A stretch of 64,000 bases of DNA from Acidobacteriota bacterium (lineage in GTDB: Bacteria; Acidobacteriota; CAIWXX01). Made by a program: the position numbers and the translations under genes. The notes under the pieces were generated by a model. The model did no database searches. It worked only from the letters and a program-made list of their open reading frames with translations, and was not told the DNA's origin. Of this stretch, positions 7,885 to 27,122 are shown piece after piece (position 1 is the first letter of the stretch; the number at the start of each line of letters is the position of its first letter). The DNA lies in the NCBI GenBank assembly GCA_040755995.1, contig JBFMAF010000008.1, positions 64,001 to 128,000 of the forward strand, given 5' to 3'.

Positions 7885-7892
7885 GGAACCTC

Positions 7893-8354: not shown

Positions 8355-8373
8355 CACGCCCACCCCGCCCGAA

Positions 8374-10227: not shown

Positions 10228-10278
10228 CTGGCTACTCCCCGACCTGTCTCCGCCCCGCCGGTGAATCGACTGGCCGAT

Positions 10279-11649
10279 CTACCATGGTCTCCTATCCTGC
10301 TCCCGTTCCGACCAACCTGCGTCATCGAACTGCTTGTGGTAGGGCTCGGCCAACTCCAGCGACTTGCGCCACGGCAGACCGACTCCCTCCATCTGGTCCC
10401 TGAACCAGGCGCGTCGCGAATCGAAGAGCGCCCTCTTGCCGTTCAACAGCGCGTCCTTTACCGGCGCGGCGGACCTCTGCGACTGTATCAGGTAGTTGAT
10501 CAATCCGACGGGGCCGAGGTCACCCACCACCACTGCGCCGATGAGGAGGTCGCGACGGAAGACGAGTTTCTGGTAGATCCGGCCTTCGAACGACTCGCGC
10601 AACCGCACCTCATCGCCCGGCTCCGGCTCGATCACCCCTATCGACATGATCGGGGTGCCGAAAAGCGGCAGGGCGGTCATGCCGATGTAGCCGCCATGTT
10701 CGGTGGAATGCCCGGCCATGTTCAAACCCGCGATGCGCCCCTGCGCGTGCGCGTTGGGCCAGTTCGCGTTCACGAACACGCTGCCACGGGTCACGTCGTG
10801 CGTCTCGGCCACATCACCGGCGGCATACACCCCGGGCACGTTCGTCTCGAAGAAGCTGTTCACCAGTACCCCGACGTCAGTCCTCACGCGCGTGCCGCTC
10901 ACCAGACTCAGATTCGGCCTGACGCCCGTCGCCTTGACGACCACTGAGCATTCGATCTTCTCCCCGTTGTCCAGCAAGACGGCGGCCACACCGTCCTCTC
11001 TGCTCCCCGACACCTCCGCCAAGCGACGTCCTACCAGAACGCGTATGCGATTCTGCTCGAGAATCGCGCGCGCGTGCTCGGATGCAGGGGCGTCAAGTAT
11101 TCGACTGAGAATGTGGGGCAACAGCTCCACGAGCGTGACATCCAGTCCGGCGCCGCGCAGTCCGCAGGCAGCCTGAATCCCCACCAGCCCCGCACCCACG
11201 ACGACGGCCGTGCGGCGGGACGAGCCGCACGCCGCAATGCGAGCGCGGATCGCCTCTGCGTCTCCCCGCCTCCAGAAATCGAAGACCCCGGTGCGATCAG
11301 ACCCCCTGAGCGGCGGGAACGTCTGGACCGAGCCGGTTGCGATGAGGAGCCTGTCGTAGTGCATCGTTTCCCCGTCTGCGAGAACGACCGTCTTCGAGTC
11401 GACGTCGAGCGATTCGGCGCGGACGCCGAGTCGCGGCTCGATCCGCAAGCGTTGATAGAAGTCGGCGGGCCGGTAACGCATTCCGTCGGCCGTCGTTTCG
11501 CCTGCGACGAAGTGCGAAATGAGCGGCCGCGAATAGACGTGATGCGGCTCATCACCGACAACCACGATCTCGCAGCTCCTGTCCACCGCGCGGATGGACT
11601 CTGCCGCGCCGATGCCAGCCGCGCTGTTGCCTACGATCAGATAGCGCAT
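10279..11649 (-). CDS. FAD/NAD-dependent oxidoreductase (AorC-like)
   Basis: IVGNSAAG FAD site, ATGS, VVGAGLVG NAD site and TNVPGVYAAGD; start trimmed to MRYLIVG. Confidence 0.88.
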   Translation of the reverse strand: MRYLIVGNSAAGIGAAESIRAVDRSCEIVVVGDEPHHVYSRPLISHFVAGETTADGMRYRPADFYQRLRIEPRLGVRAESLDVDSKTVVLADGETMHYDRLLIATGSVQTFPPLRGSDRTGVFDFWRRGDAEAIRARIAACGSSRRTAVVVGAGLVGIQAACGLRGAGLDVTLVELLPHILSRILDAPASEHARAILEQNRIRVLVGRRLAEVSGSREDGVAAVLLDNGEKIECSVVVKATGVRPNLSLVSGTRVRTDVGVLVNSFFETNVPGVYAAGDVAETHDVTRGSVFVNANWPNAHAQGRIAGLNMAGHSTEHGGYIGMTALPLFGTPIMSIGVIEPEPGDEVRLRESFEGRIYQKLVFRRDLLIGAVVVGDLGPVGLINYLIQSQRSAAPVKDALLNGKRALFDSRRAWFRDQMEGVGLPWRKSLELAEPYHKQFDDAGWSEREQDRRPW

Positions 11650-11719
11650 CGCCGCCTCCACCGGGCCTTCGAAAATCGACGCTGGACGACGCGCCACCGG
11701 GCGTATGGTGCGGGGTCTC

Positions 11720-12460
11720 TCACGAGTGGCTCGGGTGAAATGCCCATATCGTGGCGATACCGGCCAGCATGAGGGCGAACTGCAGAATCGATTCGGCCGG
11801 ACGTTTCTTTCCCCGGCGTCCCGGAATGAGGTCAGCCAGGGCGATGTAGATGAAGCTTGCCGCCGAAAGCGCGAGCACATAGGGCGCCACAGCGAGTATG
11901 GAACGCGTGGCGAGGTAGGCCAGAACCGCACCGACCAGCGTGAACGAGCTGGAGAGACTGTTGTAGAGCATGGCCGAGGCGCGGCGGTAGCCCGAGTCCA
12001 CGAGGATCATGAAGTCACCGACCTCCTGCGGGATCTCGTGCGCGATTACTGCGATGGGTGTGGCGATGCCCAGATCTGTCGACGTGACGAAAGCCATCGT
12101 GATGGCGATTCCATCCACGAAGTTGTGGAACGCGTCTCCCACCAGCACCAGCGCACCTGCCGACGAATGAACGTCGCAATGCGGATCGTGGCAGTGCCTC
12201 CAGACCACCAGCTCCTCGAGGACGAAGAACAGCAGGATGCCGAACAGCACAGTTCGGAGTGTGGCGGGCCCGGAGAGCCGCTCCAGAGCGTATGGGATCA
12301 TGCCGATGAAGGCGGCTCCGAGCAGCGTGCCGGTCGCGTAGCTCACGACGTTCGGGACCAGCCATTGGCTCTTCCCGTCCTTGAATAGCAGCACTGCGCC
12401 CGCTATCAACACCGATCCGACACTCCCGAGCGCACTGAAGAGTATGATCATTCTCAGCAT
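11720..12460 (-). CDS. ZIP-family divalent metal transporter
   Basis: HNFVDG and HEIPQEVGD motifs, His-rich loop WRHCHDPHCDVH, multiple TM helices. Confidence 0.9.
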   Translation of the reverse strand: MLRMIILFSALGSVGSVLIAGAVLLFKDGKSQWLVPNVVSYATGTLLGAAFIGMIPYALERLSGPATLRTVLFGILLFFVLEELVVWRHCHDPHCDVHSSAGALVLVGDAFHNFVDGIAITMAFVTSTDLGIATPIAVIAHEIPQEVGDFMILVDSGYRRASAMLYNSLSSSFTLVGAVLAYLATRSILAVAPYVLALSAASFIYIALADLIPGRRGKKRPAESILQFALMLAGIATIWAFHPSHS

Positions 12461-12687
12461 GGGCTCACTCCGAACGATCGGCTCTCCTGCGTGCTCATCC
12501 CCTCGTGGAAGGTGGCCATCTCTTGAAGCGGTCTCGGTGGCACAGCCTCTTTCCCACAACGTGGCCATAGCAGGAAACGCGCCAACCCCAGTCGACCGCG
12601 TGATCTGAGTGCCTTCTCTCGATGAATCTCCGGGTTGCGGTCGTGACCTGGGCGTTGCCGACGCGTGCGGGGTCGCATCGCCGCCAC

Positions 12688-13248
12688 TCACTCGGCAGAT
12701 CGAGTCGCTCCAGTGCGACTTCGCTGGACCTCGACCATTGCACCTGCGAGATACCTTGCGGCTAGACTGACGTAGAGGTCCTTCGCCCAGTGGGTCATTG
12801 GGGCGTGACGCTCGTTCACCTCGCCGGTGACCCTCGCCGGCACGCCCACCGCAATCCTGCGGGGCGGGATCTTCTGGCTGTTCTTGACCAGGGTCATTTC
12901 ACCAACTATGGCGCCCTCTCCCACCTCAGAGAAGTCGCTCACCACCGCGCGCATGCCGATGACGGCACCATCCCTGATCGTGGCGTTGTGGATCATGGCG
13001 CCGTGGCCGACGGTGACCCGCTTGCCGATCCGCGTGCAGTCCTCGGGCCGGGCGTGCACGATGACCCCTTCCTCGACGGCGGTCTCATCCCCGATCTCTA
13101 TGGAACCGTAATCGCCGCGCAAGATAGCGCCGTGCCCGATGTAGCAGCTCTCACCGATCGTCACTCTCCCAATGATCTGCGCAGAGGGGGATACATAGGC
13201 GCTTCCGGCGATGTCAGGGTGGCGTTCCTCGAAAGCGTAGACTGGCAT
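12688..13248 (-). CDS. Gamma carbonic anhydrase family protein
   Basis: Hexapeptide repeats, LRGD, VH and VTVGHGAMIH zinc histidines. Confidence 0.9.
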   Translation of the reverse strand: MPVYAFEERHPDIAGSAYVSPSAQIIGRVTIGESCYIGHGAILRGDYGSIEIGDETAVEEGVIVHARPEDCTRIGKRVTVGHGAMIHNATIRDGAVIGMRAVVSDFSEVGEGAIVGEMTLVKNSQKIPPRRIAVGVPARVTGEVNERHAPMTHWAKDLYVSLAARYLAGAMVEVQRSRTGATRSAE

Positions 13249-13315
13249 TGTTCATCCTTTCCATCAAAGCGGCTCTTTGCATTGGATCAAGTCCAGATGC
13301 GTTTCACATCATACT

Positions 13316-13483
13316 TCAAACCTCCAGAGATCGGCCCCTCATCGCCACCCTGCCCATCGCCTCATACAGCACGGGAACCACAATCAGGCGCAGGTGGAAG
13401 GCAAAGGGGAACCCGCCGAGGTAGACGACGGCCTGCGGCCTGTGCAACTCGGCGCCGGTAGACCTTGTGAGGGCGAGTGGCAA
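13316..13483 (-). pseudogene. Remnant duplicate of the cusA/czcA 3' end
   Basis: Translates LPLALTRSTGAELHRPQAVVYLGGFPFAFHLRLIVVPVLYEAMGRVAMRGRSLEV*, versus LPLALTRSTGAELHRPLAVVYIGGFLFAILLRLIVVPVLYEAMGKVALRRKGPEA* at 19608-19775. Confidence 0.9.
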
Positions 13484-13489
13484 CGAGCT

Positions 13490-15757
13490 TCAATCGAAGC
13501 TGTATTCCAGCTTGGCGAAGAACGTTCTCATGTAGCGCGGGCCGTAGACGTAGCCGGCGTCTCTGTCCGGTCCCCGGTCCAGATCAGACTGGAATTGATC
13601 GAAAAGGTTGCTCACTCCCGCAGTGAGCCGCACTTTGGCCCTGCCTGAGGGATCTGCCCACAAATCCCTTGCGCCCGTCAGATCAAGGACATAGAAAGAA
13701 GGCGTTTCCTCCAGCCGGCTAGCCTGGATGTATCCGGCGTAGTGCGGGACAAGCATTCTTCCGGTATACTGCAGCCTTCCGGATATGTTCGTTTTTGTCC
13801 TGCTCTCGTAATAGTCGGCAGAAAGGTACCCGTATGTCTCGGGTGTCCTGAAGAATGACCTTTGATTGAAATCAGGTTCAGGATGATCGTACAGCCCCTG
13901 CTCCCAGGTGAATCCTGCTGCGAATCCCAGCTTCTCACCGATCTCGATCCTTGTAGCGATTTCAACTCCGTAGCTCCTTGCAGCGCCGGCGTTTATTCTC
14001 TGGAACACAAGCTCATCGTCTCCGGAGTGCAGAGGCTGGAGTGCAAAGGCATCCCTGAGCCTCGTATAGAACCCCGTTACGGCGACTGATTGAGTCATTG
14101 TCTCTCCCGCTGTCCAGTTGTTCTGGAGACCCGCACTGTAGCTTGTGGAAGACTCCTCTCTGAGCGTTGGATCGTTGATTATGATCGCACCTTGGCCTCC
14201 GACCTGAGTGATATGCAGGTCCTCGTCAAAGACCTTCGGGGCGCAGAATCCGCGGGAGACTGCCGCCCTGAGTCTCCAGCTGTCGCTGAGTGAGATCATC
14301 ACGTTGCCGCGGGGGCTCATGACTGTCTTGTTCAATACATTGGGCCTGTCCAACCGAAGCCCGCCTACAACGGTGACTCGATTGCCCAGAGTGATTTCAT
14401 CCTGAACGAAAACTCCGGTGTTCGTGTACACGTCGTCAATGACTCTGTCATAAGCAAGAGCCTCGTCTTTCAGCCATTCACGATCCAATGCGAGGCCGGC
14501 AACAAGATAGTGTTTCTCAATCTGATGGTGCAGAACCGCCTCGAAATTGACCAGAGGGTTGGTCGACTTTCCATACGCATTCGGATCCATGTTGGAACCA
14601 TAATAGGAATCTCTTCTTGTATAGGCAAAGGCCATGGAAGTTTCGTAGAAGCTTTTGCCCGAAAGGAGCTGTCTCCATCGTGCTCTCCCGCCATATCGCA
14701 GAGTATCGGCTGCCTCTGCGGTCAAGGCCTCATGGGGAGGAAGATCGAGCCTGTCTCCACCTCTGCGGTCCTCGTGAAATCTGTGAATATCAACAGTGAG
14801 CTGGCCCTTGTTCGCCAGCAGATCCTGGAAGAATCGAACGCCGAAGGCTTCAAGCTTCTTGTATCCCATATCCGAGAATCCGTCCCCGTCTCTGTCAATC
14901 GGGGCCACCCGGTCCACCTTTCCGAAGCCGAGTATCCCCGTATCCCCGGACGAATTCACAGCAGAAAACAGGCCGGAGCCAAGACACTCCGGCCTCCCGT
15001 TCTGCCACCCCTGCTGATAACTCATCCGGAACATCGTTTCCTCCGGGTTCTTCCCCACGATGTTAACCACCCCCGCGACAGCTGAAGCTCCGAATAGCGC
15101 GGAGCCCCCACCCTTCACAACCTCGATCTGCTGTATCATCTCCGGTGGAATCTGCTCAAGCCCGTATACGAGCGCAAGAGAGCTCAGCGAAGGACTGCCG
15201 TCAAGAAGCACCTGAGTGTAGCGTCCCTCAAGTCCGTTCAGTCGGATGTGGGTTATGTTGCAGTTCTGGCATGCGTTTTCTACTCTGACTCCGGTTACTG
15301 CCGTGAAAGCGTCTGAGACCGTTCTAACCAGAGGTGAAGCCAGCTCTCTGCTGCTGATGACTTCTGTCCTCACGGGCACATCCGCAAGAACTACCTCCCT
15401 CCTGGTTCCGGTAACCACTATTGCATCAGAAACCGCTTCCTTCTTGGTAAGTTCGATTAGTATCTCCTGAATGCCATCTCCTGCCAGAGACAACGGCGGG
15501 CATTCGCTCAGATAGTACCCTTCCATAAAGGCTTCGAGAGTGTACGTTCCGCCAGGCACTTCTGCAAAGCAGAAGTCCCCGTTTCTATCGGTCGACACAA
15601 CTCTACCTAACGGCTTCAGTATTACATCCGCCGAACAGACAGGACTTCCGTCTTTTCCTGCTGTGACTCGGCCTCTGATCGTCCCTGCGCCGCAGAGGCC
15701 TACGCAGCAGAATACGAGAATCGCGCAAACGAAAAGCTGAACACATTGCCTACTCAT
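13490..15757 (-). CDS. TonB-dependent receptor with N-terminal carboxypeptidase-regulatory-like domain and plug CxxC
   Basis: Signal peptide, IVVTGTR TonB box, ENACQNC plug, IEVVKGGGSALFG, C-terminal YVYGP..EYSFD; visibly lower GC than its flanks. Confidence 0.92.
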   Translation of the reverse strand: MSRQCVQLFVCAILVFCCVGLCGAGTIRGRVTAGKDGSPVCSADVILKPLGRVVSTDRNGDFCFAEVPGGTYTLEAFMEGYYLSECPPLSLAGDGIQEILIELTKKEAVSDAIVVTGTRREVVLADVPVRTEVISSRELASPLVRTVSDAFTAVTGVRVENACQNCNITHIRLNGLEGRYTQVLLDGSPSLSSLALVYGLEQIPPEMIQQIEVVKGGGSALFGASAVAGVVNIVGKNPEETMFRMSYQQGWQNGRPECLGSGLFSAVNSSGDTGILGFGKVDRVAPIDRDGDGFSDMGYKKLEAFGVRFFQDLLANKGQLTVDIHRFHEDRRGGDRLDLPPHEALTAEAADTLRYGGRARWRQLLSGKSFYETSMAFAYTRRDSYYGSNMDPNAYGKSTNPLVNFEAVLHHQIEKHYLVAGLALDREWLKDEALAYDRVIDDVYTNTGVFVQDEITLGNRVTVVGGLRLDRPNVLNKTVMSPRGNVMISLSDSWRLRAAVSRGFCAPKVFDEDLHITQVGGQGAIIINDPTLREESSTSYSAGLQNNWTAGETMTQSVAVTGFYTRLRDAFALQPLHSGDDELVFQRINAGAARSYGVEIATRIEIGEKLGFAAGFTWEQGLYDHPEPDFNQRSFFRTPETYGYLSADYYESRTKTNISGRLQYTGRMLVPHYAGYIQASRLEETPSFYVLDLTGARDLWADPSGRAKVRLTAGVSNLFDQFQSDLDRGPDRDAGYVYGPRYMRTFFAKLEYSFD

Positions 15758-16029
15758 AGTTCTCTCCAGGTCTGATTACGGTATGCAGAATCGGTCACAC
15801 GGTATTGATGAAGCCAACGCGCCCCGATGCGATGGCGCGGTTTGCAGCATGTCAGGACGTCGCGGAGTGGGTCGGCGCCTTGGACATCCGAATCGATGTT
15901 GATCCAGGGCCGCCCAAGCGCACCGGCTTGATCAGCCCTCACCAGGCAAGGCTCGTTTTGCTCGCTGCCCGACCGCATTAACGGGTTCGAGCCCGGCGCC
16001 AGCAAGACGCACTCCACGAATGACATCAC
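15754..16029 (-). pseudogene. Degenerate 5' remnant of the tolC/cusC gene, still an open 91-codon ORF coupled to the TBDR
   Basis: SFVECVLLAPGSNPLMRSGSEQNEPCLVRADQAGALGRPWINIDSDVQ aligns ungapped (24/48 identical, by hand) with SLADCVSLALARNPLVRSAGEMYRASLARIQQAKALPQPSIDIDSDLQ of 24068..25324; GGAGG SD; ATGA overlap with the TBDR. Confidence 0.75.
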
Positions 16030-16100
16030 TGCACCTCCCCACGAACGTCGACGTACGAGAGTGTACTAACTGAACGAAACGAAATGAGCAGAGGGGGGCT

Positions 16101-16373
16101 TCAGGCGAGAGGAGGCGAGCGGGATAGCGGAATAATCAGCCATGCGCGGCGGGGCACAGAGAAGACCACCGGCTGCAGCATTTCCACTACAACCAGCTGG
16201 CACGGAGGACTCAGGTTCACCTGATGAGGCGTTCCGATCGACTGGCCGTAGTTGCATGCCGGACAGTGGTCGTTTGAAGAGATGCTTTCTTCTGTGTGCG
16301 AGAAATTGACGGACGCCAGGACGAACAGGAACAGAGCCAGGAAACCCGCCACAGCCCATCTGTTTTGCCTCAC
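16101..16373 (-). CDS. Putative metal-sensing arrest/leader peptide, copy 1 (DUF2946/CruR-like)
   Basis: 90 aa: hydrophobic N-terminus, SHTEE, HCPAC, C-terminal SRSPPLA*; paralog of 19134 and 25404; GGAG SD. Confidence 0.8.
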   Translation of the reverse strand: MRQNRWAVAGFLALFLFVLASVNFSHTEESISSNDHCPACNYGQSIGTPHQVNLSPPCQLVVVEMLQPVVFSVPRRAWLIIPLSRSPPLA

Positions 16374-16558
16374 CAGATACACTCCCATCGCCAATCTACG
16401 CCAGAGGTCGGCCGGAATTCAGGATGATACGCGGCATACCGTCGAGCCGCGTTGGGGGCGGAAGTAGGCGGCGCTTGGGCTCGACGCGGAACGTCGTCGC
16501 CCGTCCATGTGGCATCTGCCGCCAGCCAGCCTTCGTGCTGCCAGTGTCCTTGCATCTC

Positions 16559-16611
16559 TATAATGACAGTGACTCTCATTTTCATTATACAACAACTGCG
16601 AAACCTGTCAA
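16559..16611 (-). promoter_or_regulatory. Consensus sigma70 promoter overlapped by a Fur-family-like box
   Basis: Minus strand TTGACA-N16-TATAAT; TATAATGA-N15-TCATTATA inverted repeat with inner 9-1-9 AATGACAGT-G-ACTCTCATT. Confidence 0.75.
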
Positions 16612-16693
16612 CACGCTACTGGCGAGGCGCGGCCTCAGACTCGCGAAGCATGCATCGTTCTGACGGCTGCGCCTCGCCTCGACAGTGGAAGGC

Positions 16694-18976
16694 CTAGAAA
16701 AGAAGTCTAAGTGTCAGCCGTGTGTTCCGGCCTGCGCTGAGAGCGTATTGCTTATACGTGTCCAGGAAATCCTTGTACGACTTGTTGGCCAGATTGCCGA
16801 TCCAGAGATCGATGCAGAGCACGCTCTTCCCAAGTTCCCGTTTCCCGCCGGCCGCCAGGTCAAAAAGAACGTAGCTTTCCGTATCCAGGGGGAAGGGTTC
16901 GTCTGGGCCAGCGATTGTTCCCCTCCCGGTCCAGGTAGAGCGGAGCTCAACGAAGGGGCTCGACCAACTCCCCACTGCGAAGTCGTGGATCCGAACACTG
17001 AAACCGGCACGGACTGGGGGCGTGAAAGGGAGGCGCTTACCGGTATCGTCGTTATGGGTCTGCAGGGTTTCACCCAGTGCACGCAGGGACAGAAATGGCG
17101 TGGCGTCCATCTCGATCCTGCCCTCCACCCCGCTGACGACAGCGTCGCTTTGGTCAAACGTGCTCACCGGAAGGCCCCCGATCGTCTCGCCGGTCAGCCG
17201 GAGATAGATGTAGTTTGCGAATACAGCGCGATAAACAGCCACCGATCCCCGCACTCGCTCGTGATCGCATCGGAGCGTGAATTCGGTGTTGAGGTTGGTT
17301 TCCTCCTGGAGATTCGGGTTGCCTTTCTCGTAGAGCTGCACCCCGTCGTGCGGTCCGTTGGCGAAGAGCTCGAACTCCGAGGGATTTCGCCAACCCCGGC
17401 TGATGCTGACACCAGTGGAAATGACCCGATTGAAACGATACACGACTCCCGCACCCCCGGTCAACGCCTGATAGGTTTTCTCAAACTTGTCGGGAATGCT
17501 CAGTATGGTGTCCGCCGGCACATCCAGGGTCCGGCGGTCGATGCGGAGCCCCGCGTTGAGGGTCCAGTGATCGAACTTCTCCCTTCGGCCGAAGCCGGCT
17601 TCCTCGAAAACCATGGCTGACCATGTCCTGTTTTCGTAATAGGGCAGTAGCTTGACCGGGCCGAACGTTTCATTGCTTTGGCGGCTATGTTCCAGTCGAA
17701 CGACGCCCCGCGCCAGCGGACCCACTGGATTATGCTGGAAAGATGCCCGGTACAACTGGGTGTCGAGCTCGAGATCCACTTTTGCCCCATGGCTCCGCCC
17801 CAGGGGGAACGCGCGGCGGATGTTCCGGGAAAGATTGGCGTCCAACTGCAGCAGTCCCCACGTCGCAGGCAGGGAGGCAGCCACACCACCAATCTCGTTT
17901 TGGAGGCCCAGACGGAAATTCGGCTGGAGTGGAATGTAGAACCCCAAGTCGTTTTGCCAATGCCGGAAATGCCCTGTGACCATCATGCCTTTCTCGGACT
18001 GATAACCGCCTTCCAGCGAAGCGGATTGCTGATCGTAGTCGGTGTTGGGGAGGTCTCCGGCCGGCGTTCCCATGTTGCCCGTTGCCCGGTGCGTCAGTGA
18101 GGCGCGCCCGGCGAAGCCTGCGCGGCCACCATCGATCTGTGCGTGGAGGATCTTGGCTCCGTTGACACCAGCGTATCCAAGGATACCTTCCCCGCTGAAC
18201 ACCGGCCGATCATCCACCGGGAATGGGAGCGGCGCGGAGACTAGATTGACGACACCACCGATGGCCTGCGTTCCGTACAGCACGCTGGCAGGCCCGCTGA
18301 CGACTTCGATGCGATCGGCCTCGTAGGGTTCGATGTTCGCCATGTGTCGGCGGCTGAACTGGAAATAGTCATGGAAAATACCGTTGCTGAGGACCCGGAT
18401 GCGTTCATTGGTCTGGCCCCTGATCATCGGGACACCACTTGCATCTCCGGTGGATATGTTGCGCACACCCGGAACATCCTTGATCGCCTCCCCGATTGAG
18501 AGTCCTGAACGGGTGCGGACGCTTCCGGCATCGACCGCGTACGTAGTTTGCGCCACAGCCAGACTTTCCGCCTTCCATGGAGCGGCGGTCACGGTAACGG
18601 ATTCGGAAATGACAGGCAACGGCCGGGCGGCCAGCTGAATTTCAGCAGCAGAGGGAACTTCAATCCTGAACTGTTCCGGCACGAACTTCGCACTGGACAG
18701 GGCCAACGTGAACTGCCCCGGAGGGATATCTGCAAAACTGAACCGGCCTTCGGAGTCGGTAAGCGTCGACAAACCCAGCTCGGCCAACTCAACCGTAATG
18801 CCGGCGACCGGGTCCCCCGTACCCGCTCGGACCACGCGACCGAAGACCTCGGAACCGGACTCCTCTGCCAACAGCGTCAATGGTGTGAACACCGAGAGAA
18901 GCGCGGCACCAGTGCAAAAGAAGAGTACAATCGCAATCCTAGCTGTCGATGGATCTCTTGCAAACCTAAGTGACAT
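16694..18976 (-). CDS. TonB-dependent receptor
   Basis: Signal peptide, N-terminal carboxypeptidase-like domain, ESVTVTA TonB box, PMIRG, IEVVSGPASVLYG, ELFANGPH, terminal Phe. Confidence 0.92.
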   Translation of the reverse strand: MSLRFARDPSTARIAIVLFFCTGAALLSVFTPLTLLAEESGSEVFGRVVRAGTGDPVAGITVELAELGLSTLTDSEGRFSFADIPPGQFTLALSSAKFVPEQFRIEVPSAAEIQLAARPLPVISESVTVTAAPWKAESLAVAQTTYAVDAGSVRTRSGLSIGEAIKDVPGVRNISTGDASGVPMIRGQTNERIRVLSNGIFHDYFQFSRRHMANIEPYEADRIEVVSGPASVLYGTQAIGGVVNLVSAPLPFPVDDRPVFSGEGILGYAGVNGAKILHAQIDGGRAGFAGRASLTHRATGNMGTPAGDLPNTDYDQQSASLEGGYQSEKGMMVTGHFRHWQNDLGFYIPLQPNFRLGLQNEIGGVAASLPATWGLLQLDANLSRNIRRAFPLGRSHGAKVDLELDTQLYRASFQHNPVGPLARGVVRLEHSRQSNETFGPVKLLPYYENRTWSAMVFEEAGFGRREKFDHWTLNAGLRIDRRTLDVPADTILSIPDKFEKTYQALTGGAGVVYRFNRVISTGVSISRGWRNPSEFELFANGPHDGVQLYEKGNPNLQEETNLNTEFTLRCDHERVRGSVAVYRAVFANYIYLRLTGETIGGLPVSTFDQSDAVVSGVEGRIEMDATPFLSLRALGETLQTHNDDTGKRLPFTPPVRAGFSVRIHDFAVGSWSSPFVELRSTWTGRGTIAGPDEPFPLDTESYVLFDLAAGGKRELGKSVLCIDLWIGNLANKSYKDFLDTYKQYALSAGRNTRLTLRLLF

Positions 18977-19133
18977 GGTTGCCTCCTGTGTCAATCATTC
19001 TGGTGACACAATTAAAGTATCGTCAGTTCTTTCATTATGAAGATGCTCATCCCCCACACTTCTGTACGCCTCCCCTGAAACGGCGGGGTACAAGTATGTT
19101 GGCTAAGCGAAACCGGACGAGCAGGCGGAGGGG

Positions 19134-19406
19134 TCAGGCGGGGGGAGGTGAGCGGGAGATGGGCACGACGACAGCTGCCTGGCGAGGCGGTGGCATCCCG
19201 ATCTGCCCTAGCAGTTCCACCACGTCCAGTTGCCATGGTGGGCTCAGGTCCACATCCTGAGCCGTACCGAGCGACTGGCAATAGATGCAGGCGGGACAGT
19301 CGTCGTTCGCGCAGATGTCCTTTTCTGTGTGCGAGGCATCGACGGAAGCCAGGACGAACAAGAACGCGGCCAGGAAGGACGCAATGGCCCATCTGTTTCG
19401 GCCCAT
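19134..19406 (-). CDS. Putative metal-sensing arrest/leader peptide, copy 2
   Basis: 90 aa: hydrophobic N-terminus, SHTEK, DCPACIYC, C-terminal SRSPPPA*; GGAG SD. Confidence 0.8.
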   Translation of the reverse strand: MGRNRWAIASFLAAFLFVLASVDASHTEKDICANDDCPACIYCQSLGTAQDVDLSPPWQLDVVELLGQIGMPPPRQAAVVVPISRSPPPA

Positions 19407-19607
19407 CACGCGCACTCCATTTGAATCAGATTTCGCCCCTTCCTTGGCTGCCTCGAACGGCAGGCGCTTTTCGCAATGGACATGGTGAGGGGAAGAGGTG
19501 ATGAGCTATGCCGGTGCCGTTCAGCTTCACCACATGTCACCGCGTCCACTGCATGACTGAATCACGATACCCTGTGGCTACAGAGTCCATAGCAGCCACC
19601 GCCTCCT

Positions 19608-22600
19608 TCATGCCTCGGGCCCCTTGCGTCTCAACGCCACCTTGCCCATCGCCTCGTACAGCACGGGAACCACGATCAGGCGCAGGAGAATCGCGAAGAG
19701 GAAGCCGCCGATGTAGACGACGGCCAGCGGCCTGTGTAGCTCCGCCCCGGTGGATCTTGTCAAGGCGAGCGGCAGAACGCCCATGATCATTACCACGTCG
19801 GTGAGAAAGATCGGCCTGAACTTTGTCAGCGCCCCCTGCAGCACGGCCTCACGCAGCGCGAGTCCCTGCTTCACGAGGCCGTTGATCTTGGCCACCAGAA
19901 TCACGTCGTTCTGAACACAGATGCCGAAGAGAGCGATCAGGCCTATGGTGGAGGAGACGTTGATGGTCTGTCCTGTCACCCAGAGCGCAAGGATTCCACC
20001 GATCAAGGTCGAGGGGATGTTCAAGACGATCAGCAGCGACTGCCAGATCGATCCCAGCGAGGAGAACAGTATCACGAAGACGATCAGGATCACGATGATC
20101 ATGACGTAGGTGAGGTGCCTCATCGCGCGCTGCTGGCCTTCGAACTGGCCCCCGAACGTGACGAAGTAGCCGGGTGGCAGGAGCACATCCTCGGAGATCC
20201 TCCTCCGCGCATCTTCCACAAAGCTCCCGATGTCCCGCCCGATGACGTTGCACAGGATGATCTTCCGCCGCATGAGGTTTTCGCGGAGGATAGTCTGAGG
20301 CCCCTCGCTCCTGCTGATCGTCGCGAGGTCTGCGAGTGGGATTCGTACTCCGGACGGCGTGTCCACCAGAAGGCTGCGGATGGCGTCCTCGTCGTTGCGA
20401 TACTGATCAGGCAGGCGTATCAACACGGATGTCACCCTGTCCTCTTCGTAGACGTCCGTGACTTCGATCCCGTTCAGCGCGGTCTCGATCAGGTCGGCAA
20501 TCTGGCCGACGGGGATGCCATGCCTGCCGAGCTCCTGCCGCTCCAGCTGGATGACGAGCTGAGGCACGCCGGTGGTCTGCTCGATCTGGAGATCTGCCAC
20601 CCCGTCGATCTCTGCTATCACACCGCGGATCTCCTTGATCTTCTCGGTCAGAACCGCAAGGTTCGGCCCGAAGAGCTTGACGGAGAGCTGGCCCTCGGTT
20701 CCGGTTAGCATCTCGGCGAGCTTGTTGGCGATCGGCTGCTCGAAGATGTAGGCGATGCCCGGCAGCTTGTCCAGCTCGGTTCGCATCGCCTCGATGACCT
20801 CTTCGATGCTCCGTTCCCGGCCCTCCTGGGGCAGGAGCTGGATGTTATAGTGACTGTGGCCGACCGGGTGCAGATGCTCGGATGCCTCGGCCGTGCCCGT
20901 CATTCTCGAAACCGACACCACCTCGGGGAAAGACATGAAAATCGACTCGATCTTGGTCCCCATCTTCACCGATTCCTCGAGCGAAGTCTCCGGCAGCATC
21001 ACGGTGGACGCCATGATGGCACCCTCGTCCAAAGGCGGTACGAACTCCTTGCCGAGGAAGTGGAGTCCGATTCCTGCCACCGCGATGAGCAGCAGGAACG
21101 CCGTGATGATCTTGCCCTTGTGATCGAGCGCTCGAAGCAGAAGTGACCGGTAGGCGGAGGCCAAGCCGACGATCATCGGGTTGGGCCTGTTCTTGAGAGA
21201 GCCCCGGCTCAGGAGAACGGCCGCCAGAATGGGCTGCAGCGTCAGATTCAGAATCATCGCACCGAAAAGCGCCCCGGCCACGGCGAAGGCGGTCGGATGG
21301 AACATCGCGCCCTCGATACCCTGGAGCGTCAGGAGCGGCACAAAGACCAGGATGATGATCAAACTCGCAGAAAAGAGGTAGCTTCCCACCTCCCTGGCCG
21401 CCGCCGAAACCAGTTCGGTGCCGGAGCGTGAGGAGCGGCCGGTGTTCTCCTGGAGTATCCTGACGATGTTCTCGACCATGATGATGGACCCGTTGGCCAT
21501 CTTTCCGATTCCGATGGCGAGACCGCCGATGGACATGACGGTCAACTTGATCCCGAAGAGGTCCATGAGCACCAGCGCGATCAGGATGGAAAAAGGGATC
21601 GTGAGGGATGCGATGAGGGAGCTGCGCACGTTCCACATGAAGAACATCATCACGAGGATGATGAGGATCGCCCCTTCCAGGATCGAAATCTCCAGGTGCT
21701 CAATAGATCTGACGATCAAGATCGATTGGTCATAGAAGGGCTTGATGGTGATGTTCCTGGGCAGGTCCCTGGAGACTTGCGCGATCGCGTTCTTGATGTT
21801 CGCGATGGCGTTGAGGGTGTCCCCGCCATACTGCTTCTCGACGGTGACGTAGACAGCCTCCTTCCCATTGTGCCCCGCCGACTCGCGCCTGAACTTGCTC
21901 CCGATCTTCACCTCCGCCACGTCCTTCACGAAGACGGGCACATTGTCGCGCGACGTGATGAGGGTGTTCTGGATGTGATCGAGGGTCTCCATCCGGCCCA
22001 GCCCCTTGATAAGTATCTCCTGGGACCCCTTCGAGATGATCCCTCCCGAGAAGTTGCGATTGTTGGCCCCGATCGCCTCCCTGACCTCCTCGATCGTTAT
22101 GTCATAGTGCGTGAGCATGTCCGGCTTGAGATAGACCTGGTATTGTTTGATGAACCCGCCGAGATTGATGATGAAGGCCATGCCGGGCACACCCTGCAGC
22201 CGGTAGCGCACCGTCCAGTCGGCCACGGAGCGAAGCTCGAGCGGATCTGCACCTTCCCCGACGACCGCGAACTCGAAGACCTCGCCCATCCGCGACGAGA
22301 CCGGGCCGAGAATCGGCTCGGTCGTTCCAACCGGCAGGCGCCCCGCAATCAGCTCCAACTTGCTCGCGACGATCTGCCGCGCCAGGTAGATGTCCGTGTC
22401 CCAGTCGAATTCGACCGTGACCACCGAATCGCCCGTCGCCGATTCGGACCGCACCCGAGTCACGTGCGGCGCCCCGGACATGAGGCTCTCGAGCGGAAAC
22501 GATATCAACCGCTCGACGTCCTCAGAGGCCATCCCGGGGTTCTCGGTGATGATGGTTACGAGCGGCGCATTGAGGTCAGGGTAGATATCCTTTGGGATTC

Positions 22601-22697
22601 GTATGTAGACAACGACCCCCCAGATGCAGACAAGGAGCAGCAGGAGGACCGTGAGCAGCTTGTGTCTGAGAGAGAAATCGATCAGGCGGCCGATCAT
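19608..22697 (-). CDS. CusA/CzcA-family heavy-metal RND efflux permease
   Basis: 1029 aa; DIYPDL, EDVERLISFPLE, GGFIKQYQV, GKEFVPPLDEG, FEQPI, FGGQFE and RPLAVVYIGG motifs. Confidence 0.93.
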   Translation of the reverse strand: MIGRLIDFSLRHKLLTVLLLLLVCIWGVVVYIRIPKDIYPDLNAPLVTIITENPGMASEDVERLISFPLESLMSGAPHVTRVRSESATGDSVVTVEFDWDTDIYLARQIVASKLELIAGRLPVGTTEPILGPVSSRMGEVFEFAVVGEGADPLELRSVADWTVRYRLQGVPGMAFIINLGGFIKQYQVYLKPDMLTHYDITIEEVREAIGANNRNFSGGIISKGSQEILIKGLGRMETLDHIQNTLITSRDNVPVFVKDVAEVKIGSKFRRESAGHNGKEAVYVTVEKQYGGDTLNAIANIKNAIAQVSRDLPRNITIKPFYDQSILIVRSIEHLEISILEGAILIILVMMFFMWNVRSSLIASLTIPFSILIALVLMDLFGIKLTVMSIGGLAIGIGKMANGSIIMVENIVRILQENTGRSSRSGTELVSAAAREVGSYLFSASLIIILVFVPLLTLQGIEGAMFHPTAFAVAGALFGAMILNLTLQPILAAVLLSRGSLKNRPNPMIVGLASAYRSLLLRALDHKGKIITAFLLLIAVAGIGLHFLGKEFVPPLDEGAIMASTVMLPETSLEESVKMGTKIESIFMSFPEVVSVSRMTGTAEASEHLHPVGHSHYNIQLLPQEGRERSIEEVIEAMRTELDKLPGIAYIFEQPIANKLAEMLTGTEGQLSVKLFGPNLAVLTEKIKEIRGVIAEIDGVADLQIEQTTGVPQLVIQLERQELGRHGIPVGQIADLIETALNGIEVTDVYEEDRVTSVLIRLPDQYRNDEDAIRSLLVDTPSGVRIPLADLATISRSEGPQTILRENLMRRKIILCNVIGRDIGSFVEDARRRISEDVLLPPGYFVTFGGQFEGQQRAMRHLTYVMIIVILIVFVILFSSLGSIWQSLLIVLNIPSTLIGGILALWVTGQTINVSSTIGLIALFGICVQNDVILVAKINGLVKQGLALREAVLQGALTKFRPIFLTDVVMIMGVLPLALTRSTGAELHRPLAVVYIGGFLFAILLRLIVVPVLYEAMGKVALRRKGPEA

Positions 22698-22712
22698 TCG
22701 CTCTTCCCCGCC

Positions 22713-24068
22713 TCAGTGAACATGGGCCTGTTTCAGCTCCTCATCCAGGAGCTTGCTCTTGAGCTGGTAGCTGCCGGCGGTCACGACCTTCTCTCCCGGC
22801 TCGATCCCGTCGAGGATCTCGTAGAAGCCGTTCTCCCTGCAGCCGACAGCTACGGCCCTCGGCTCGAACCCTCCGTCGACACTCAGAAAGACCATCTTCT
22901 CGCCACGGTCGTCCAGCACAGCCTCCACCGGCAGCGCCAGAACCTCTGTCGGCTGGTCAAGGTAGATCGTAACGTCGGCGAACATCCCGGCCTTCAGCTG
23001 CTGGCCTCTGTTGTCGACCTGAGTGCGCATGGTGATGGTCCGCGTGTCCTCCTTCAGGACGTCGCCGACGTACGTCACGCGGCCCTCGAATCTCTCTGCC
23101 GGATACGCAGGCACCGAAACCTGGACCTCCTGCCCCACTCGGATTCTCGACACATCTCTCTCGTAGATCTCCGCATCGATCCAGAGAACGGTCGGGTCCA
23201 TGATGACGAAGATCTCCGTGGTCTGGTCCACCATGCCGCCCAGAATAGCCTTGGTGTCGATGACCTTGCCGCTCAACGGAGAGTGCAGGGTGATCACGGC
23301 ATTGATCTGGTGGCTCTTGTCCATCTCCAAAACTTGTGCCTCGGTGAAGCCCAGCACATGGAGCTTCTTCTCCGCTGCATTCAACGTAGCCTCCGCCGCC
23401 TTGAATGAGGCCTCGCTCTGCAACACGTCCTTCTCGGCACCCACGCCGCGATTGAACAGCAGGCGCTCGCGCTCGAGGCTCCGATTCGCCAGCTCGTGGT
23501 CCGCTCTCGCCTTGTAGAACTCGGACCTGGCGTTGCCAACCTCCTCGCTCTCGAGCGTCACCAGCTCCTGTCCCGCCCTCACCCAATCGCCGAGGGACAC
23601 GTGGATCTCCGAAACCCTGGCAGAGAAAGCGTAGCTGACGATGGCCTTCTTCTTCTGCGGAATGAGGACCTTCCCCATCGCCTTGAGCTGCGAGCGCATC
23701 GGCCGCCGCCCGACCTCGGCGGTCTTGATCTCGACTGCCCCTTGCTCAGCCTCGGAAAGCTCCACCAGCGGCACCGCATCGTGCTGCCATCCACGGCCCC
23801 ATCGCCGGCTATGGCGGTGAGCGGCGTCACGGAGCGCGCCGGCGGCGTTGTTCAATGCCTGTGTCTGCCCGGACACGGGTTGGACTGTCTCCTTCTCGGA
23901 GGACGCGGCCTGCCCGGTCCGCGCGACCCCGTTCGTTGTTCTCGTACATCCAGGAGCAGCCGCACACGTGGCCAGCACGGCCAGGATGTGAACCACACGC
24001 GGGACCTGATGCAAGGCGTTGCGGTCCGAGCGGGATATCATGGATTTGAAACCAGAATTCCTATTCAT
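22713..24068 (-). CDS. RND periplasmic adaptor (CusB/CzcB-like)
   Basis: LGDWVRAGQEL, SPLSGKV, LKAGMFA and GEKVVTAGSY motifs; C-terminal HVH. Confidence 0.9.
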   Translation of the reverse strand: MNRNSGFKSMISRSDRNALHQVPRVVHILAVLATCAAAPGCTRTTNGVARTGQAASSEKETVQPVSGQTQALNNAAGALRDAAHRHSRRWGRGWQHDAVPLVELSEAEQGAVEIKTAEVGRRPMRSQLKAMGKVLIPQKKKAIVSYAFSARVSEIHVSLGDWVRAGQELVTLESEEVGNARSEFYKARADHELANRSLERERLLFNRGVGAEKDVLQSEASFKAAEATLNAAEKKLHVLGFTEAQVLEMDKSHQINAVITLHSPLSGKVIDTKAILGGMVDQTTEIFVIMDPTVLWIDAEIYERDVSRIRVGQEVQVSVPAYPAERFEGRVTYVGDVLKEDTRTITMRTQVDNRGQQLKAGMFADVTIYLDQPTEVLALPVEAVLDDRGEKMVFLSVDGGFEPRAVAVGCRENGFYEILDGIEPGEKVVTAGSYQLKSKLLDEELKQAHVH

Positions 24069-25324
24069 TAATCATCTCCTACTTGTGGCTCGCCAACCGC
24101 CCTCTCCAGCGCAGCCAGCGCCACCGAATACTCGGAACGGGAGTCCGCGTAGGACTTGCGTGTTTCGATCAGCGTCCGCCGGGACTCGATCAAGTCAATG
24201 CCTGCCGCGCCGCCGTGAAGGTAGCTGAACAGCAGCATGTCATACGCCTCCTCGGCCTGCGACAGCATTTCCTCCTCGAAGAGCGCTATCTGCTCGGCGG
24301 CGGACGCGGCGCTCCGATACGCATCCTCCACCTCCAGAGAGATCAGGTTCAGCGTGTGCTCCGCTTCGCGCCTCGCCGCCTCAAGGTTCGCCTCCGCCTC
24401 GCGGACCTCACCTCTCTTCGGCTGCCAGAAGAACAGCGGCACGGGGAACGAGATCGCGAAGTCCCACGTCGACTCCTCTCCCGCGATCCGGTGGCGAGAC
24501 AGCCCCACATCGAAATCGGGCAGATAGCTCAGATACCCCTGCTTGCGCCGGAGCGTTTCCTTTTCTACGGAGGCCTGCGCTCGCCGCGCCTCCGGCCGAG
24601 ACGCAGAGGCTCTCTGCCTGAGCTCTTCGACGGGTGGAATCTCTGCCCTCGGCTTGAACTCCCCGTCAATCTCCAGAGGATCGTCGGTACCTCTGGCCAG
24701 CAAGTAGTTGAGGCGGGCCTTCGCGAGCCTGATGTCGCGCATGGCAGCTTGAGCGGTGTTGGCTGCCTTTGACGCTTCCACCCGCGCCCGAAGGACCTCC
24801 ACTCTGGGCGCATCCCCGGCCTCGAACTTCACCCTCGTCTTGTCGAGAAAATCGTTGGCAAGATCGCGGTCCTCCTCGCTGTGACGCAGCTTCTCCATGG
24901 CGAGGAGAAGCCCGTAGAAGGCCTCCTTGATCTCGTATGTGATCTGCAATCTCCACAGGTCAAGATCGGCGAGTGCCTCCTGGGATTCTCGAACGGCTAT
25001 CCCGCCACGGGTTGCGCGTTTCCCCGGAAACTCGAATGTCTGGGAGATACCGAGATAGGACTCTCCTGAGTGGCCAAGCTGGAAAGGGCCGGGCTGGAGA
25101 TCCGAATCGATGTCGATCGACGGCTGTGGCAGCGCCTTCGCCTGTTGAATCCTCGCCAACGATGCCCGGTACATCTCCCCGGCCGATCGGACCAGCGGAT
25201 TCCTTGCGAGCGCCAGCGAGACGCAATCCGCGAGGGACAACCGCTGAGGCGTGCCCTCGCCATGAAGAACCGCCGCCGGTACGACTTGGGCCAATAATAG
25301 TAGACAAACAGCTACCCGCTGCAC
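24068..25324 (-). CDS. TolC-family outer membrane efflux protein (CusC/CzcC-like)
   Basis: Signal peptide, LSLADCVSLALARNP, two OEP repeats; AGGAGG SD before GTG. Confidence 0.9.
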   Translation of the reverse strand: MQRVAVCLLLLAQVVPAAVLHGEGTPQRLSLADCVSLALARNPLVRSAGEMYRASLARIQQAKALPQPSIDIDSDLQPGPFQLGHSGESYLGISQTFEFPGKRATRGGIAVRESQEALADLDLWRLQITYEIKEAFYGLLLAMEKLRHSEEDRDLANDFLDKTRVKFEAGDAPRVEVLRARVEASKAANTAQAAMRDIRLAKARLNYLLARGTDDPLEIDGEFKPRAEIPPVEELRQRASASRPEARRAQASVEKETLRRKQGYLSYLPDFDVGLSRHRIAGEESTWDFAISFPVPLFFWQPKRGEVREAEANLEAARREAEHTLNLISLEVEDAYRSAASAAEQIALFEEEMLSQAEEAYDMLLFSYLHGGAAGIDLIESRRTLIETRKSYADSRSEYSVALAALERAVGEPQVGDD

Positions 25325-25403
25325 TTCTATACACCTCCTGGAAAAGCGTGATGAACGAGATGTAACTGTCTCTGGTGACCCGATCTACGGGCGAAAGGAG
25401 GCT

Positions 25404-25685
25404 TCAGAAAGTGGGAGGCGAGCGGGAGAGCGGAGCGAACAGAACGGCCTGACAGTGCCAGCTAACCTCGACGGGCTCCAGCTGTTCGACCACAGCCAGT
25501 CGACAGGCCGGTATGATGTCAGCGTGCTGGGCTGTTGCCAGTGACTGGCCGTAGACTCCAGCAGGGCACTGGTCGTTGTCATTGGAGCTGATGTACTCCT
25601 CGGTGTGAGACAGGTTGACGCAGGCCAGAACGAAAACGAAGACGGCCAACGTGGGCCAATTCAACCACCTCGTTCGTCTCGTCAT
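25404..25685 (-). CDS. Putative metal-sensing arrest/leader peptide, copy 3
   Basis: 93 aa: hydrophobic N-terminus, SHTEE, QCPAG (second Cys absent), C-terminal SRSPPTF*; GGAG SD. Confidence 0.78.
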   Translation of the reverse strand: MTRRTRWLNWPTLAVFVFVLACVNLSHTEEYISSNDNDQCPAGVYGQSLATAQHADIIPACRLAVVEQLEPVEVSWHCQAVLFAPLSRSPPTF

Positions 25686-25784
25686 GCCTACTCCGGTAAC
25701 TACTCTACCCAACATCCGGCCAGGCCGTCAACGGAATTCTAGACTGTTGCAAGATGCTACACCTACTGCTATGCTTTGCCGCTG

Positions 25785-27122
25785 ATGGAGAAGCGGCTCG
25801 ACGCACGCCATTTCCCGCTGGTGCTCGACTTCGTTGAGCAGGGCATATTCACAGTGGATGAAAAGGGATGCATAACCTCGTTCAACCGGGCGGCGAAGGC
25901 CATAACCGGCTATTCGGAGGAAGACGTGCTGGGTCGGGAATGCTCCTCGGTGTTCAGGACGGAGCTATGCGACACGATCTGCCCGCTGCGGCGCAGCATC
26001 GCCTCCGGCGAGTACATCCGGAACCGCGAGGTGCGGATACACGCCAAGGACGGGCGGCGGATTCCGATCTCGATCAGCACGGCGCCTCTTCTTACCTCGT
26101 GGGGTACACTGCTGGGCGGGGTCGAGGTCTTCACCGATCTCTCGCACATCGCGGATCTGCAGCGGAAGCTCGATGGGCAGTACCAGTTCGAGGACATCGT
26201 CAGCCGCAATCCCGAGATGCACAAGATCTTCAAGATGCTCCCCCTCGTCGCTGAGAGCACCAGCACAATCCTCATCACGGGTGCCAGCGGCACCGGCAAG
26301 GAGCTCGTGGCGAAGGCGATCCACCATCATGGTCCCCGCAGCAAGCGCCCTTTTGTCGCTGTCAACTGCGCGGCGATACCGGAGACGCTTCTCGAATCAG
26401 AGCTCTTCGGCTACCGGCGCGGCGCGTTCACCGACGCAAAGCGCGACAGGGCGGGGAGAATCGCACAAGCCGAGGGCGGAACGCTGTTCGTCGACGAGGT
26501 GGGCGACCTGCCCAAACCCCTGCAGGTGAAGCTCCTCAGGTTCTTGCAGGACAAGACGTACGAACCACTCGGGTCCAACGTGGCCCAGCGCGCGAATGTG
26601 AGAGTGATCGCCGCGACGCATCGAGACTTGGAGGCGATGATGCGGGAAGGGCTTTTCCGAAAGGACCTGTACTTCCGTCTGAATATCCTGCAGATCGCGC
26701 TGCCGCCGCTCTCCAGGCGTCCGGAGGACATCCCGCTGCTCGCCCGCCATTTCGTCCAACGTTTCCGCCAGGCCACCGGCAAGGTCATCGAGGGGATCTC
26801 GCCGGAGGCGCTTGCCGCGCTGGTGCGTTACCCATTCCCAGGCAACGTGCGCGAACTGGAGAATCTCATCGAGCGCGCCTTCATCCTGTGCGAGAGGCCG
26901 GTGGTCGACCTGCGTGACCTGCCGCCGCATGTCGCGGCGGCGCTGAGCCGGGGCGCCGGGCCGGAGGCCGTAGATGAACACGGCGGGAGCCTGAATCGTG
27001 TAGAGATCGAGGCAATACAGCAGGCACTGAAAAGGCACGCAGGCAATCGCACACGCGCCGCGCGAGATCTCGGCATTCATCGCAGCACGCTCATCCGCAA
27101 GATCCATCGTTACCGGCTATGA
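25785..27122 (+). CDS. PAS-domain sigma54-dependent transcriptional activator (Fis family)
   Basis: PAS domain, GASGTGKE, ESELFG..GAFTDA, FVDEVGD, FPGNVREL and a C-terminal HTH. Confidence 0.93.
   Translation: MEKRLDARHFPLVLDFVEQGIFTVDEKGCITSFNRAAKAITGYSEEDVLGRECSSVFRTELCDTICPLRRSIASGEYIRNREVRIHAKDGRRIPISISTAPLLTSWGTLLGGVEVFTDLSHIADLQRKLDGQYQFEDIVSRNPEMHKIFKMLPLVAESTSTILITGASGTGKELVAKAIHHHGPRSKRPFVAVNCAAIPETLLESELFGYRRGAFTDAKRDRAGRIAQAEGGTLFVDEVGDLPKPLQVKLLRFLQDKTYEPLGSNVAQRANVRVIAATHRDLEAMMREGLFRKDLYFRLNILQIALPPLSRRPEDIPLLARHFVQRFRQATGKVIEGISPEALAALVRYPFPGNVRELENLIERAFILCERPVVDLRDLPPHVAAALSRGAGPEAVDEHGGSLNRVEIEAIQQALKRHAGNRTRAARDLGIHRSTLIRKIHRYRL

Follow-up and report, generated by a model that had tools for sequence, protein, structure and literature searches.

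Three small open reading frames upstream of metal-transport genes

The window, that is, the whole 64,000-nucleotide stretch of the Acidobacteriota contig analyzed here, contains three small upstream open reading frames (uORFs) that end in R-S-P-P-x-x-stop. We refer to them as copies A, B and C, or by their approximate positions (25k, 19k and 16k); all features described below lie on the minus strand. The three uORFs share the same anatomy, namely a hydrophobic N-terminus, a His followed by CPAC or CPAG, 44 residues, and the RSPP-x-x-stop end. uORF-A (25404..25685) encodes 93 aa from the ATG at 25685, in a frame that also opens at 25715, and contains HTEE, CPAG and RSPPTF-stop. uORF-B (19134..19406) encodes 90 aa with CPAC and RSPPPA-stop, and uORF-C (16101..16388) encodes 95 aa with CPAC and RSPPLA-stop and shows a weak DUF2946 match (E 0.4). 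In all three, the N-terminus has basic residues and a 17-residue hydrophobic stretch. None of the three was assigned to any NCBIfam family. They are paralogues with 49-55% identity to the 25k copy, they are mutual nearest relatives, and a search of the genome with their own profile (E<=1) recovered only these three copies. Therefore, their agreement amounts to one observation, and independent support has to come from homologues.

At the 3′ end, copy A reads CGC TCG CCT CCC ACT TTC TGA (stop ending at 25404) and continues into AGCCTCCT (C-rich tract, 25396..25403). Copy B reads CGC TCA CCT CCC CCC GCC TGA (19134), followed by CCCCTCC (19127..19133), and copy C reads CGC TCG CCT CCT CTC GCC TGA (16101), followed by AGCCCCCCTC (16091..16100). 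The RSPP codons occupy 25413..25424 in copy A, 19143..19154 in copy B and 16110..16121 in copy C, and a Shine-Dalgarno sequence (SD) follows after gaps of 65, 60 and 62 nt, respectively: AGGAGG in copy A (25334..25339) and GGAGG in copies B (19069..19073) and C (16034..16038). The sequence-only reading of this DNA had described CCT-CCY proline codons in all three copies (CCT-CCC, CCT-CCC and CCT-CCT), a C-rich tract after each stop, and a GGAGG approximately 60-65 nt downstream, and our analysis bears out all of these points. It had also regarded the spacers of its copies 1 and 2 as alignable. This holds for the 16k and 19k spacers, which carry the motif it quoted and whose score was matched by 0 of 2000 shuffles, whereas the 25k spacer, although it is the one within the coordinates given for that observation, aligns more weakly with the other copies (p 0.007 and 0.036). 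Such likeness is a matter of descent by duplication and not in itself of structure. At E<=0.1, nothing in Rfam matched positions 13000-27000, and hence no riboswitch of a known type was recognized there.

The uORFs are located directly upstream, and on the same strand, of metal-homeostasis genes, which comprise a CusA/CzcA RND operon and TonB-dependent receptors. The SD of copy A lies 9 nt before the GTG of a gene for an outer-membrane efflux protein of the OEP/TolC family (24068..25324; PF02321), the direct target of the proposed switch A, which is followed by an RND periplasmic adaptor (CzcB/CusB-like; 22713..24068; PF16576, with TIGR01730 over the cut-off) and a CusA/CzcA-family heavy-metal RND transporter (19608..22697; TIGR00914, 860 bits against a cut-off of 701). 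The only reading frame served by the copy B SD is a 15-codon GTG ORF (19012..19059), whose SD-to-GTG stretch matches that of the copy A OEP gene. This ORF is probably a relic; tblastn with OEP homologues gave no match there. Receptor B (16694..18976), for which the best NCBIfam score was ZnuD, far below the cut-off, starts 36 nt past the stop of the 15-codon ORF and has its own, comparatively open SD (18987-18982; 3.1-3.9 kcal/mol). The SD of copy C is followed by a 90-codon ORF (15754..16026), the first 49 residues of which are an OEP remnant (49% over 49 aa, E 2e-12) that aligns to OEP residues 29-77; OEP homologues match the same stretch. The stop of this ORF overlaps the start of receptor C (13490..15757) in an ATGA, which suggests a relay by translational coupling. 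In 38 of the 119 homologous loci, receptor C was also the protein that the downstream gene matched best. Among the three SDs, the one at 25k alone leads into an intact gene, that of the CzcCBA-like operon, and those at 19k and 16k serve the 15-codon ORF and the efflux-gene remnant. Judging from these sequences, copies B and C resemble duplicates of a uORF-OEP unit in which the OEP gene may have decayed.

Further downstream, a cluster at 4074-13248 on the same strand encodes a hexapeptide/gamma-carbonic-anhydrase-like protein, a ZIP transporter, an NAD(P)H oxidoreductase with a rubredoxin-reductase domain, an aldehyde ferredoxin oxidoreductase, another TonB receptor and an FmdE-domain protein. 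This is a metal-uptake and metalloenzyme neighbourhood. The ZIP/ZupT-like transporter, the gamma-carbonic-anhydrase-like gene and the weak ZnuD score hint weakly at Zn or another divalent metal over Cu. The genome encodes Rho (TIGR00767 over the cut-off), and a second Rho-like gene is located at G000:C24:352231-353319 (399 bits, below the cut-off). No 16S rRNA gene was found in the assembly.

As for transcription signals, a candidate sigma70-like promoter, recognized by consensus match (9/12), lies directly upstream of uORF-A (25702..25731), and a perfect sigma70 consensus (12/12) lies upstream of uORF-C (16584..16611), about 190 nt from the uORF start, unlike in the homologues. A 7-bp inverted repeat at 16571-16599 overlaps the -10 box of the latter; it presumably resembles Fur-family boxes and may be a metalloregulator site. 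Among the homologues described below (L007-L207), 66 of 108 have a TTGAC at a distance of 25-70 nt, mostly 36-50 nt, upstream of their first plausible ATG, and this proximity implies leaderless or near-leaderless transcripts. An operator palindrome common to the homologues was not found upstream of 112 of them (best 5/112).

Homologues of the uORFs

Protein searches returned 5 and then 37 further matches, and 36 of the sequences, together with 2 window sequences, 1 locus sequence and the query, went into a 41-row alignment in which His, Cys, Arg, Pro and Pro are invariant. A profile built from it matched 25 of 401 genomes of the phylum and 89 of 201 genomes of one class; a tighter alignment used as a profile recovered 72 metagenome loci, and a 3-row alignment searched against genome contigs gave 2 short matches, which were left out. 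Look-alike Atlas clusters were commonest in Acidobacteriota, an observation that serves as a lead only. The RxPP end was present in 189 of 199 profile matches, the other 10 lacking it or running off a contig edge, and dereplication of these 189 members at 75% left 119 loci. Of these, 107 entered the pairing tests (12 were dropped for lack of a clear downstream ORF, a spacer longer than 140 nt, or a weak SD) and 110 the codon test, and the 3′ regions of 57 of the 107 were aligned.

The anatomy seen in the window recurs throughout the 119 loci. The motif is RSPP in 84, RAPP in 26, RGPP in 4, RDPP in 4 and RFPP in 1, and two codons separate it from the stop in 97. CxxC occurs in 109 loci, a His before the CxxC position is present in 117, and the distance from there to the Arg is 44 residues in 97 and 45 residues in 7; a hydrophobic N-terminal stretch is present in 116. 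CPAG is found in 7 of 61 OEP-linked loci, including the 25k copy. In eight members (L024, L115, L121, L122, L125, L126, L134 and L135), NKSPP replaces RxPP.

The next downstream gene was OEP-like in 64 loci (the copy C remnant included) and a TonB-dependent receptor (TBDR) in 42, so that these two classes account for 106 of the 119 with the 16k remnant counted; nine were unclassified and four had no ORF. On the uORF tree, the target class changed 24 times, compared with 37.5 times after shuffling. The median spacer was 67 nt before OEP genes (61 loci) and 92 nt before TonB receptors (37 loci). Targets of 418-452 aa at L090, L093, L095, L103 and L106 (also L028 and L027) matched neither the window OEP nor its TBDRs, and an NCBIfam scan of those of L090, L093, L028 and L027 gave no family.

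Codon choice and predicted closure of the SD

In the six-frame ORFs of at least 400 aa in this genome, shadow ORFs included, CCT makes up 15.4% of Pro codons and 21.6% of Pro-Pro first codons. CCTCC was found 55-85 nt before GGAGG in 4 of 200 control genes. Among the homologues, the first Pro was CCT in 71 of 110 loci, compared with 30.8 expected from downstream codon usage. However, CCT also came first in 33 of 76 Pro-Pro pairs of the downstream genes. Because ordinary pairs are CCT-rich too, the true excess is 65% versus 43%.

Next, we calculated by folding the cost of opening the SD, which was 10.4 kcal/mol for copy A, 12.0 for copy B and 9.4 for copy C, with a median of 8.9 kcal/mol over the 107 homologous loci. 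In ordinary GGAGG genes (200 of 533), the median was 3.7 kcal/mol and 6 of 200 reached 9.25. The SD is thus predicted to be unusually closed relative to ordinary genes. In all three window copies, it is predicted to pair with the uORF 3′ end, as earlier supposed. The partners differ: in copy A they are the post-stop tract (0.57, the commonest) or the Thr-Phe-stop codons (0.42), in copy B the post-stop tract (1.00; range 0.94-1.0), and in copy C the Pro-Pro codons (1.00; about 1.0 for the RSPP codons as a whole). The Pro-Pro codons are thus the predicted SD partner at 16k only, with other partners favoured at 25k and 19k. Across the 107 loci, the top partner was Pro-Pro in 39, the post-stop tract in 23, the S-R-x codons in 12, the codons after Pro-Pro in 11, the spacer in 11 and upstream sequence in 10, with the SD unpaired in 1.

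A stalled ribosome was represented by a mask up to +18 from the first Pro, which was taken as the P-site codon by analogy with ApdA/ApdP. Since the extent of the footprint is a matter of general knowledge, it was varied from +12 to +24, and the results were similar. Under the mask, the opening cost fell to 2.9 (A), 7.2 (B) and 5.1 (C) kcal/mol, with a family median of 4.9, and it fell by >1 kcal/mol in 82 of 107 loci, compared with a median drop of 0.01 in control genes. The predicted swing was from 11.0 to 4.0 kcal/mol in receptor-linked loci and from 8.7 to 5.5 in OEP-linked loci. The proposal that a stall would free the SD is thus partly supported: the cost falls in all three copies, but in copy B a local hairpin holds the SD at 7.2 kcal/mol under all masks. 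Under the masks, the window SDs are still predicted to be mostly paired, with other partners. The synonymous CCT->CCG change that had been suggested as a check lowered the opening cost in silico, but only by 0.5 (25k), 1.7 (19k) and 2.8 (16k) kcal/mol, with a family median of 0.45. The median predicted disruption in the family was 0.45 kcal/mol for the coding arm, 0.17 for the post-stop tract and 1.72 for both. Given so small an effect of CCT->CCG, a synonymous-codon test could come out falsely negative.

Covariation between the uORF 3′ end and its own SD

To address pairing across homologues, we compared the predicted binding of each uORF 3′ end to its own SD region and to those of other loci. 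It bound its own 2.46 kcal/mol better (83/107 loci; 0/10,000 permutations), and 24 of the 107 had no cognate advantage. Against the five nearest relatives, the own-SD advantage was -1.77, while control windows gave -0.50 to +0.13. The window copies ranked 0.25, 0.06 and 0.25 among partners. In 53 phylogenetically independent pairs, taken from a tree built without the tested 3′ end, the contrasts for the coding part were negative (supporting cognate pairing) in 40, positive in 10 and zero in 3 (p 2e-5). The codons point the same way: among synonymous recodings, the native ones had a median quantile of 0.13, compared with 0.56 for control codons, and they fell within the best 5% in 31 of 107 loci, compared with 3 of 107. 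Copy B is an exception, as its codons are not optimised (quantile 0.45).

The post-stop tract behaved differently: its 20 nt showed no cognate covariation (23 versus 29 pairs), and the controls were likewise without signal. Co-evolution of this tract with the SD was accordingly rejected. Two further candidates were also dropped, namely that the Ser of RSPP is chosen as TCA/TCG to lengthen the pairing (TCC/TCT dominate, 65/78), and that the wobble position of the second Pro codon varies in concert with the nucleotide preceding GGAGG (40 versus 39.0 expected).

When 89 GGAGG loci were compared in one fixed register, covariation was seen in 3 of 24 columns (+6, +8 and +9, the codons after Pro-Pro; p 0.0015-0.005, uncorrected). 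RNAalifold found no consensus pairs in the 57 aligned 3′ regions, and a fixed-register helix was only slightly above shuffles (12/500 and 10/500), its covariation score being equalled by a slid register; a single fixed consensus hairpin was accordingly rejected. Whole-region folding z-scores of -1.9, -0.7 and +0.7 were not notable. Six loci have an AGGAGA-type SD whose complement sits in the Phe-Ser-stop codons, and five of them lack CCT-CCY; they are probably one clade. In the L090 group, the anti-SD has moved to the Phe-Ser-stop codons. The folding and covariation check had a mixed outcome, in that the SD is predicted to be paired and the coding 3′ end covaries with its cognate SD, but the homologues yield no consensus structure of fixed form. 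The most apt description of the pairing is an anti-SD zone that is flexible and redundant, with its centre in the last codons, and not one conserved hairpin.

We also considered that the complementarity is due to chance or is a relic, since Pro-Pro forces CC-N-CC and duplication would share it among the copies, leaving a pairing without function. The paralogy of the three copies and the general preference for CCT in Pro-Pro pairs (33/76) fit this notion, and because the ORFs fed by copies B and C are relics, these two copies alone could plausibly be read in this way. For the family, however, the notion has already been largely refuted by the covariation in 53 independent pairs, by the optimisation of synonymous codons and by an SD closure that far exceeds that of ordinary genes, and we regard it as very improbable. 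The regulatory element is real and comparatively well supported.

Comparison with known regulatory nascent peptides

The comparisons below refer to the portions of the cited papers that were accessible. In the CutF-cutO system of Rhodobacter capsulatus, a small exported Cys-containing uORF likewise ends in a proline motif, and the stem shielding the SD downstream can unfold upon stalling; the genes that follow those for CutF-like proteins are most often OEP and TonB-like, at an intergenic distance of mostly <100 nt (PMC9973294; bioRxiv 10.1101/2025.02.05.636593). In our family, an SD-sequestering stem within reach of the stalled ribosome was also found in silico, weakly for copy B. However, CutF has CxxxC and PPP in place of CxxC and RSPP (PMC9973294), its target is a multicopper oxidase rather than RND efflux or a TonB receptor, and its stem-loop is placed between cutF and cutO, whereas here the covarying anti-SD lies in the last codons and pairs across 60-100 nt. 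The terms ‘Acidobacter’ and ‘Aminicenant’ are absent from the main text of PMC9973294.

CruR (Bp2923, DUF2946/PF11162), which precedes bfrG in Bordetella pertussis, has an N-terminal export signal, a CXXC and an RxPP near the C terminus spaced by 45 residues, compared with 44 here (the criterion for CruR being about 45, within 1-2); like the uORFs here, it is also first in a metal-transport operon and has a C>G-rich 3′ end (PMC9426467). In contrast to our family, with mostly RSPP in biased, SD-complementary codons, CruR is reported to have RAPP in frequent codons, no SD stem is described for it in the accessible text, and it acts by Rho-dependent termination over 162 nt (PMC9426467). None of the window copies reached the PF11162 gathering cut-off of 23.7 bits (11.9 bits, E 0.4, for the 16k copy; the other two unmatched), a PF11162 search of the genome recovered none of the three uORF loci, and 4 of the 41 aligned members matched at E<=1 (best 3.4e-4). 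The uORF family is thus formally outside DUF2946. One look-alike Atlas cluster was 54% DUF2946, again as a lead only. Elsewhere in the genome, a 179-aa open frame with a weak DUF2946 match (L208, G000:C23:152890-153078; E 0.013) is possibly another leader of the same kind.

This resemblance raises the question of whether the family is primarily of the CruR type, such that the stalled ribosome shields a Rho utilisation site formed by the C-rich 3′ end, transcription termination is the level of control, and SD pairing is secondary. Rho is encoded in the genome, and the 3′ end contains more C than G (family mean 0.33 versus 0.13; 0.39/0.23, 0.51/0.20 and 0.40/0.20 in the window copies). The post-stop tract, moreover, is kept in composition yet lacks cognate covariation, the CxxC, the RxPP and their spacing agree with CruR, and Rho control would account for copy B governing a receptor that has its own open SD. 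However, a better fit of the last codons to their own SD flanks than to those of relatives is not what a rut site would lead one to expect, and the spacers are short (medians of 67 and 92 nt) compared with the 162 nt given for cruR-bfrG in the accessible text of PMC9426467. We therefore consider a primarily Rho-based control unlikely, while noting that Rho and SD mechanisms can coexist.

SecM and ApdA/ApdP/RQH have an R-x-P with its Pro in the P site and a further Pro in the A site, as would be the case in our family, and in SecM and uDF_RQH a stalled ribosome disrupts an SD-sequestering stem (PMC10951233, PMC10987492, PMC7897499, PMC12992588). These peptides act as monitors of Sec/YidC activity and are encoded in front of sec or yidC genes, whereas our uORFs have a CxxC segment and are followed by OEP or TBDR genes, not by secA, secDF or yidC; for ApcA/ApdA/ApdP, no SD hairpin is predicted in the accessible accounts. 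In those available for ApdA/ApdP, RSPP variants keep partial arrest (PMC10951233, PMC12992588), and we accordingly mark the RSPP codons as a putative stall site. Such partial arrest leaves room for a reading without regulated arrest, in which the stem does no more than tie downstream translation to ordinary ribosome transit or termination on the uORF, or dampens the target constitutively, and the peptide serves otherwise, for example as a small metal chaperone. RAPP alone is described as insufficient for arrest, and the Arg position, held critical for RAPP arrest in the same accessible literature, is Lys in the eight NKSPP members. On the other hand, the Arg and both Pro residues never vary in the 41-sequence alignment, the CxxC-to-R distance is 44 in 97 of 119 loci and such spacing is stated to matter for CruR (PMC9426467, accessible text), and RSPP is described as under-represented in bacterial proteomes; a family devoid of regulated arrest seems quite improbable to us.

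Taken together, the family works like CutF and is built like CruR. The logic by which a stall unmasks an SD has already been published for CutF and SecM, so that the basic mechanism carries limited surprise. In the open-access text searched, we found no statement that RxPP or arrest codons double as an anti-SD.

Proposed mechanism and significance

We propose that the three uORFs encode regulatory nascent peptides of the CruR/CutF kind. The hydrophobic N-terminus of each would be inserted or exported, and the His/CxxC segment, by analogy with the CxxC and spacing of CruR, may sense a transition metal. By analogy with RAPP structures, the ribosome would pause when the first Pro of RSPP occupies the P site. 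The last codons, R-S-P-P-x-x-stop, would provide the 5′ arm for a long-range stem closing the SD/start region 60-100 nt downstream, in a flexible rather than a fixed register and with post-stop pyrimidines assisting the arm in some copies; this stem is predicted by folding and supported by homologue covariation. A ribosome paused on the arm would free the SD, so that pausing would mean ON, and run-through and release would let the stem re-form (OFF). That initiation at the downstream gene becomes possible while a paused ribosome sits over the anti-SD zone, with release restoring the stem, is in our judgement the probable mode of action. The in vivo effect of such pairing may be anticipated from Bacillus subtilis, in which anti-SD-like sequences repress at long range, according to the accessible part of the report (bioRxiv 10.1101/2025.11.27.690947).

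In this genome, the proposed switch of copy A, which precedes the CzcCBA-like operon, is intact. Copy C probably relays through the OEP remnant coupled to its receptor, and the SD arm of copy B no longer directly controls receptor B. It counts against the scheme that one stall-ON logic would govern both exporters and importers, since opposite metal responses should be needed.

These results extend metal-responsive nascent-peptide control to a family missed by Pfam and NCBIfam but present in 89 of 201 genomes of one class, and their comparative part is evidence that a second selection, at the level of RNA, acts on arrest-motif codons. In addition, approximately 100 natural variants before efflux and uptake genes offer material on the direction of the response. 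A more far-reaching reading, which we put forward only tentatively and think rather doubtful, is that the family is an unannotated, widespread clade of metal-sensing arrest peptides in uncultured bacteria, in which the stall codons hold the repressor RNA arm, the choice of codon and residue after Pro-Pro co-evolves with the target SD, and the compact module has repeatedly moved between exporter and importer operons. If this speculation is true, then either close peptide relatives answer metal oppositely or all of them sense something besides excess metal, and the family would be a natural test set for the CruR-versus-CutF question of whether the ligand induces or relieves arrest.
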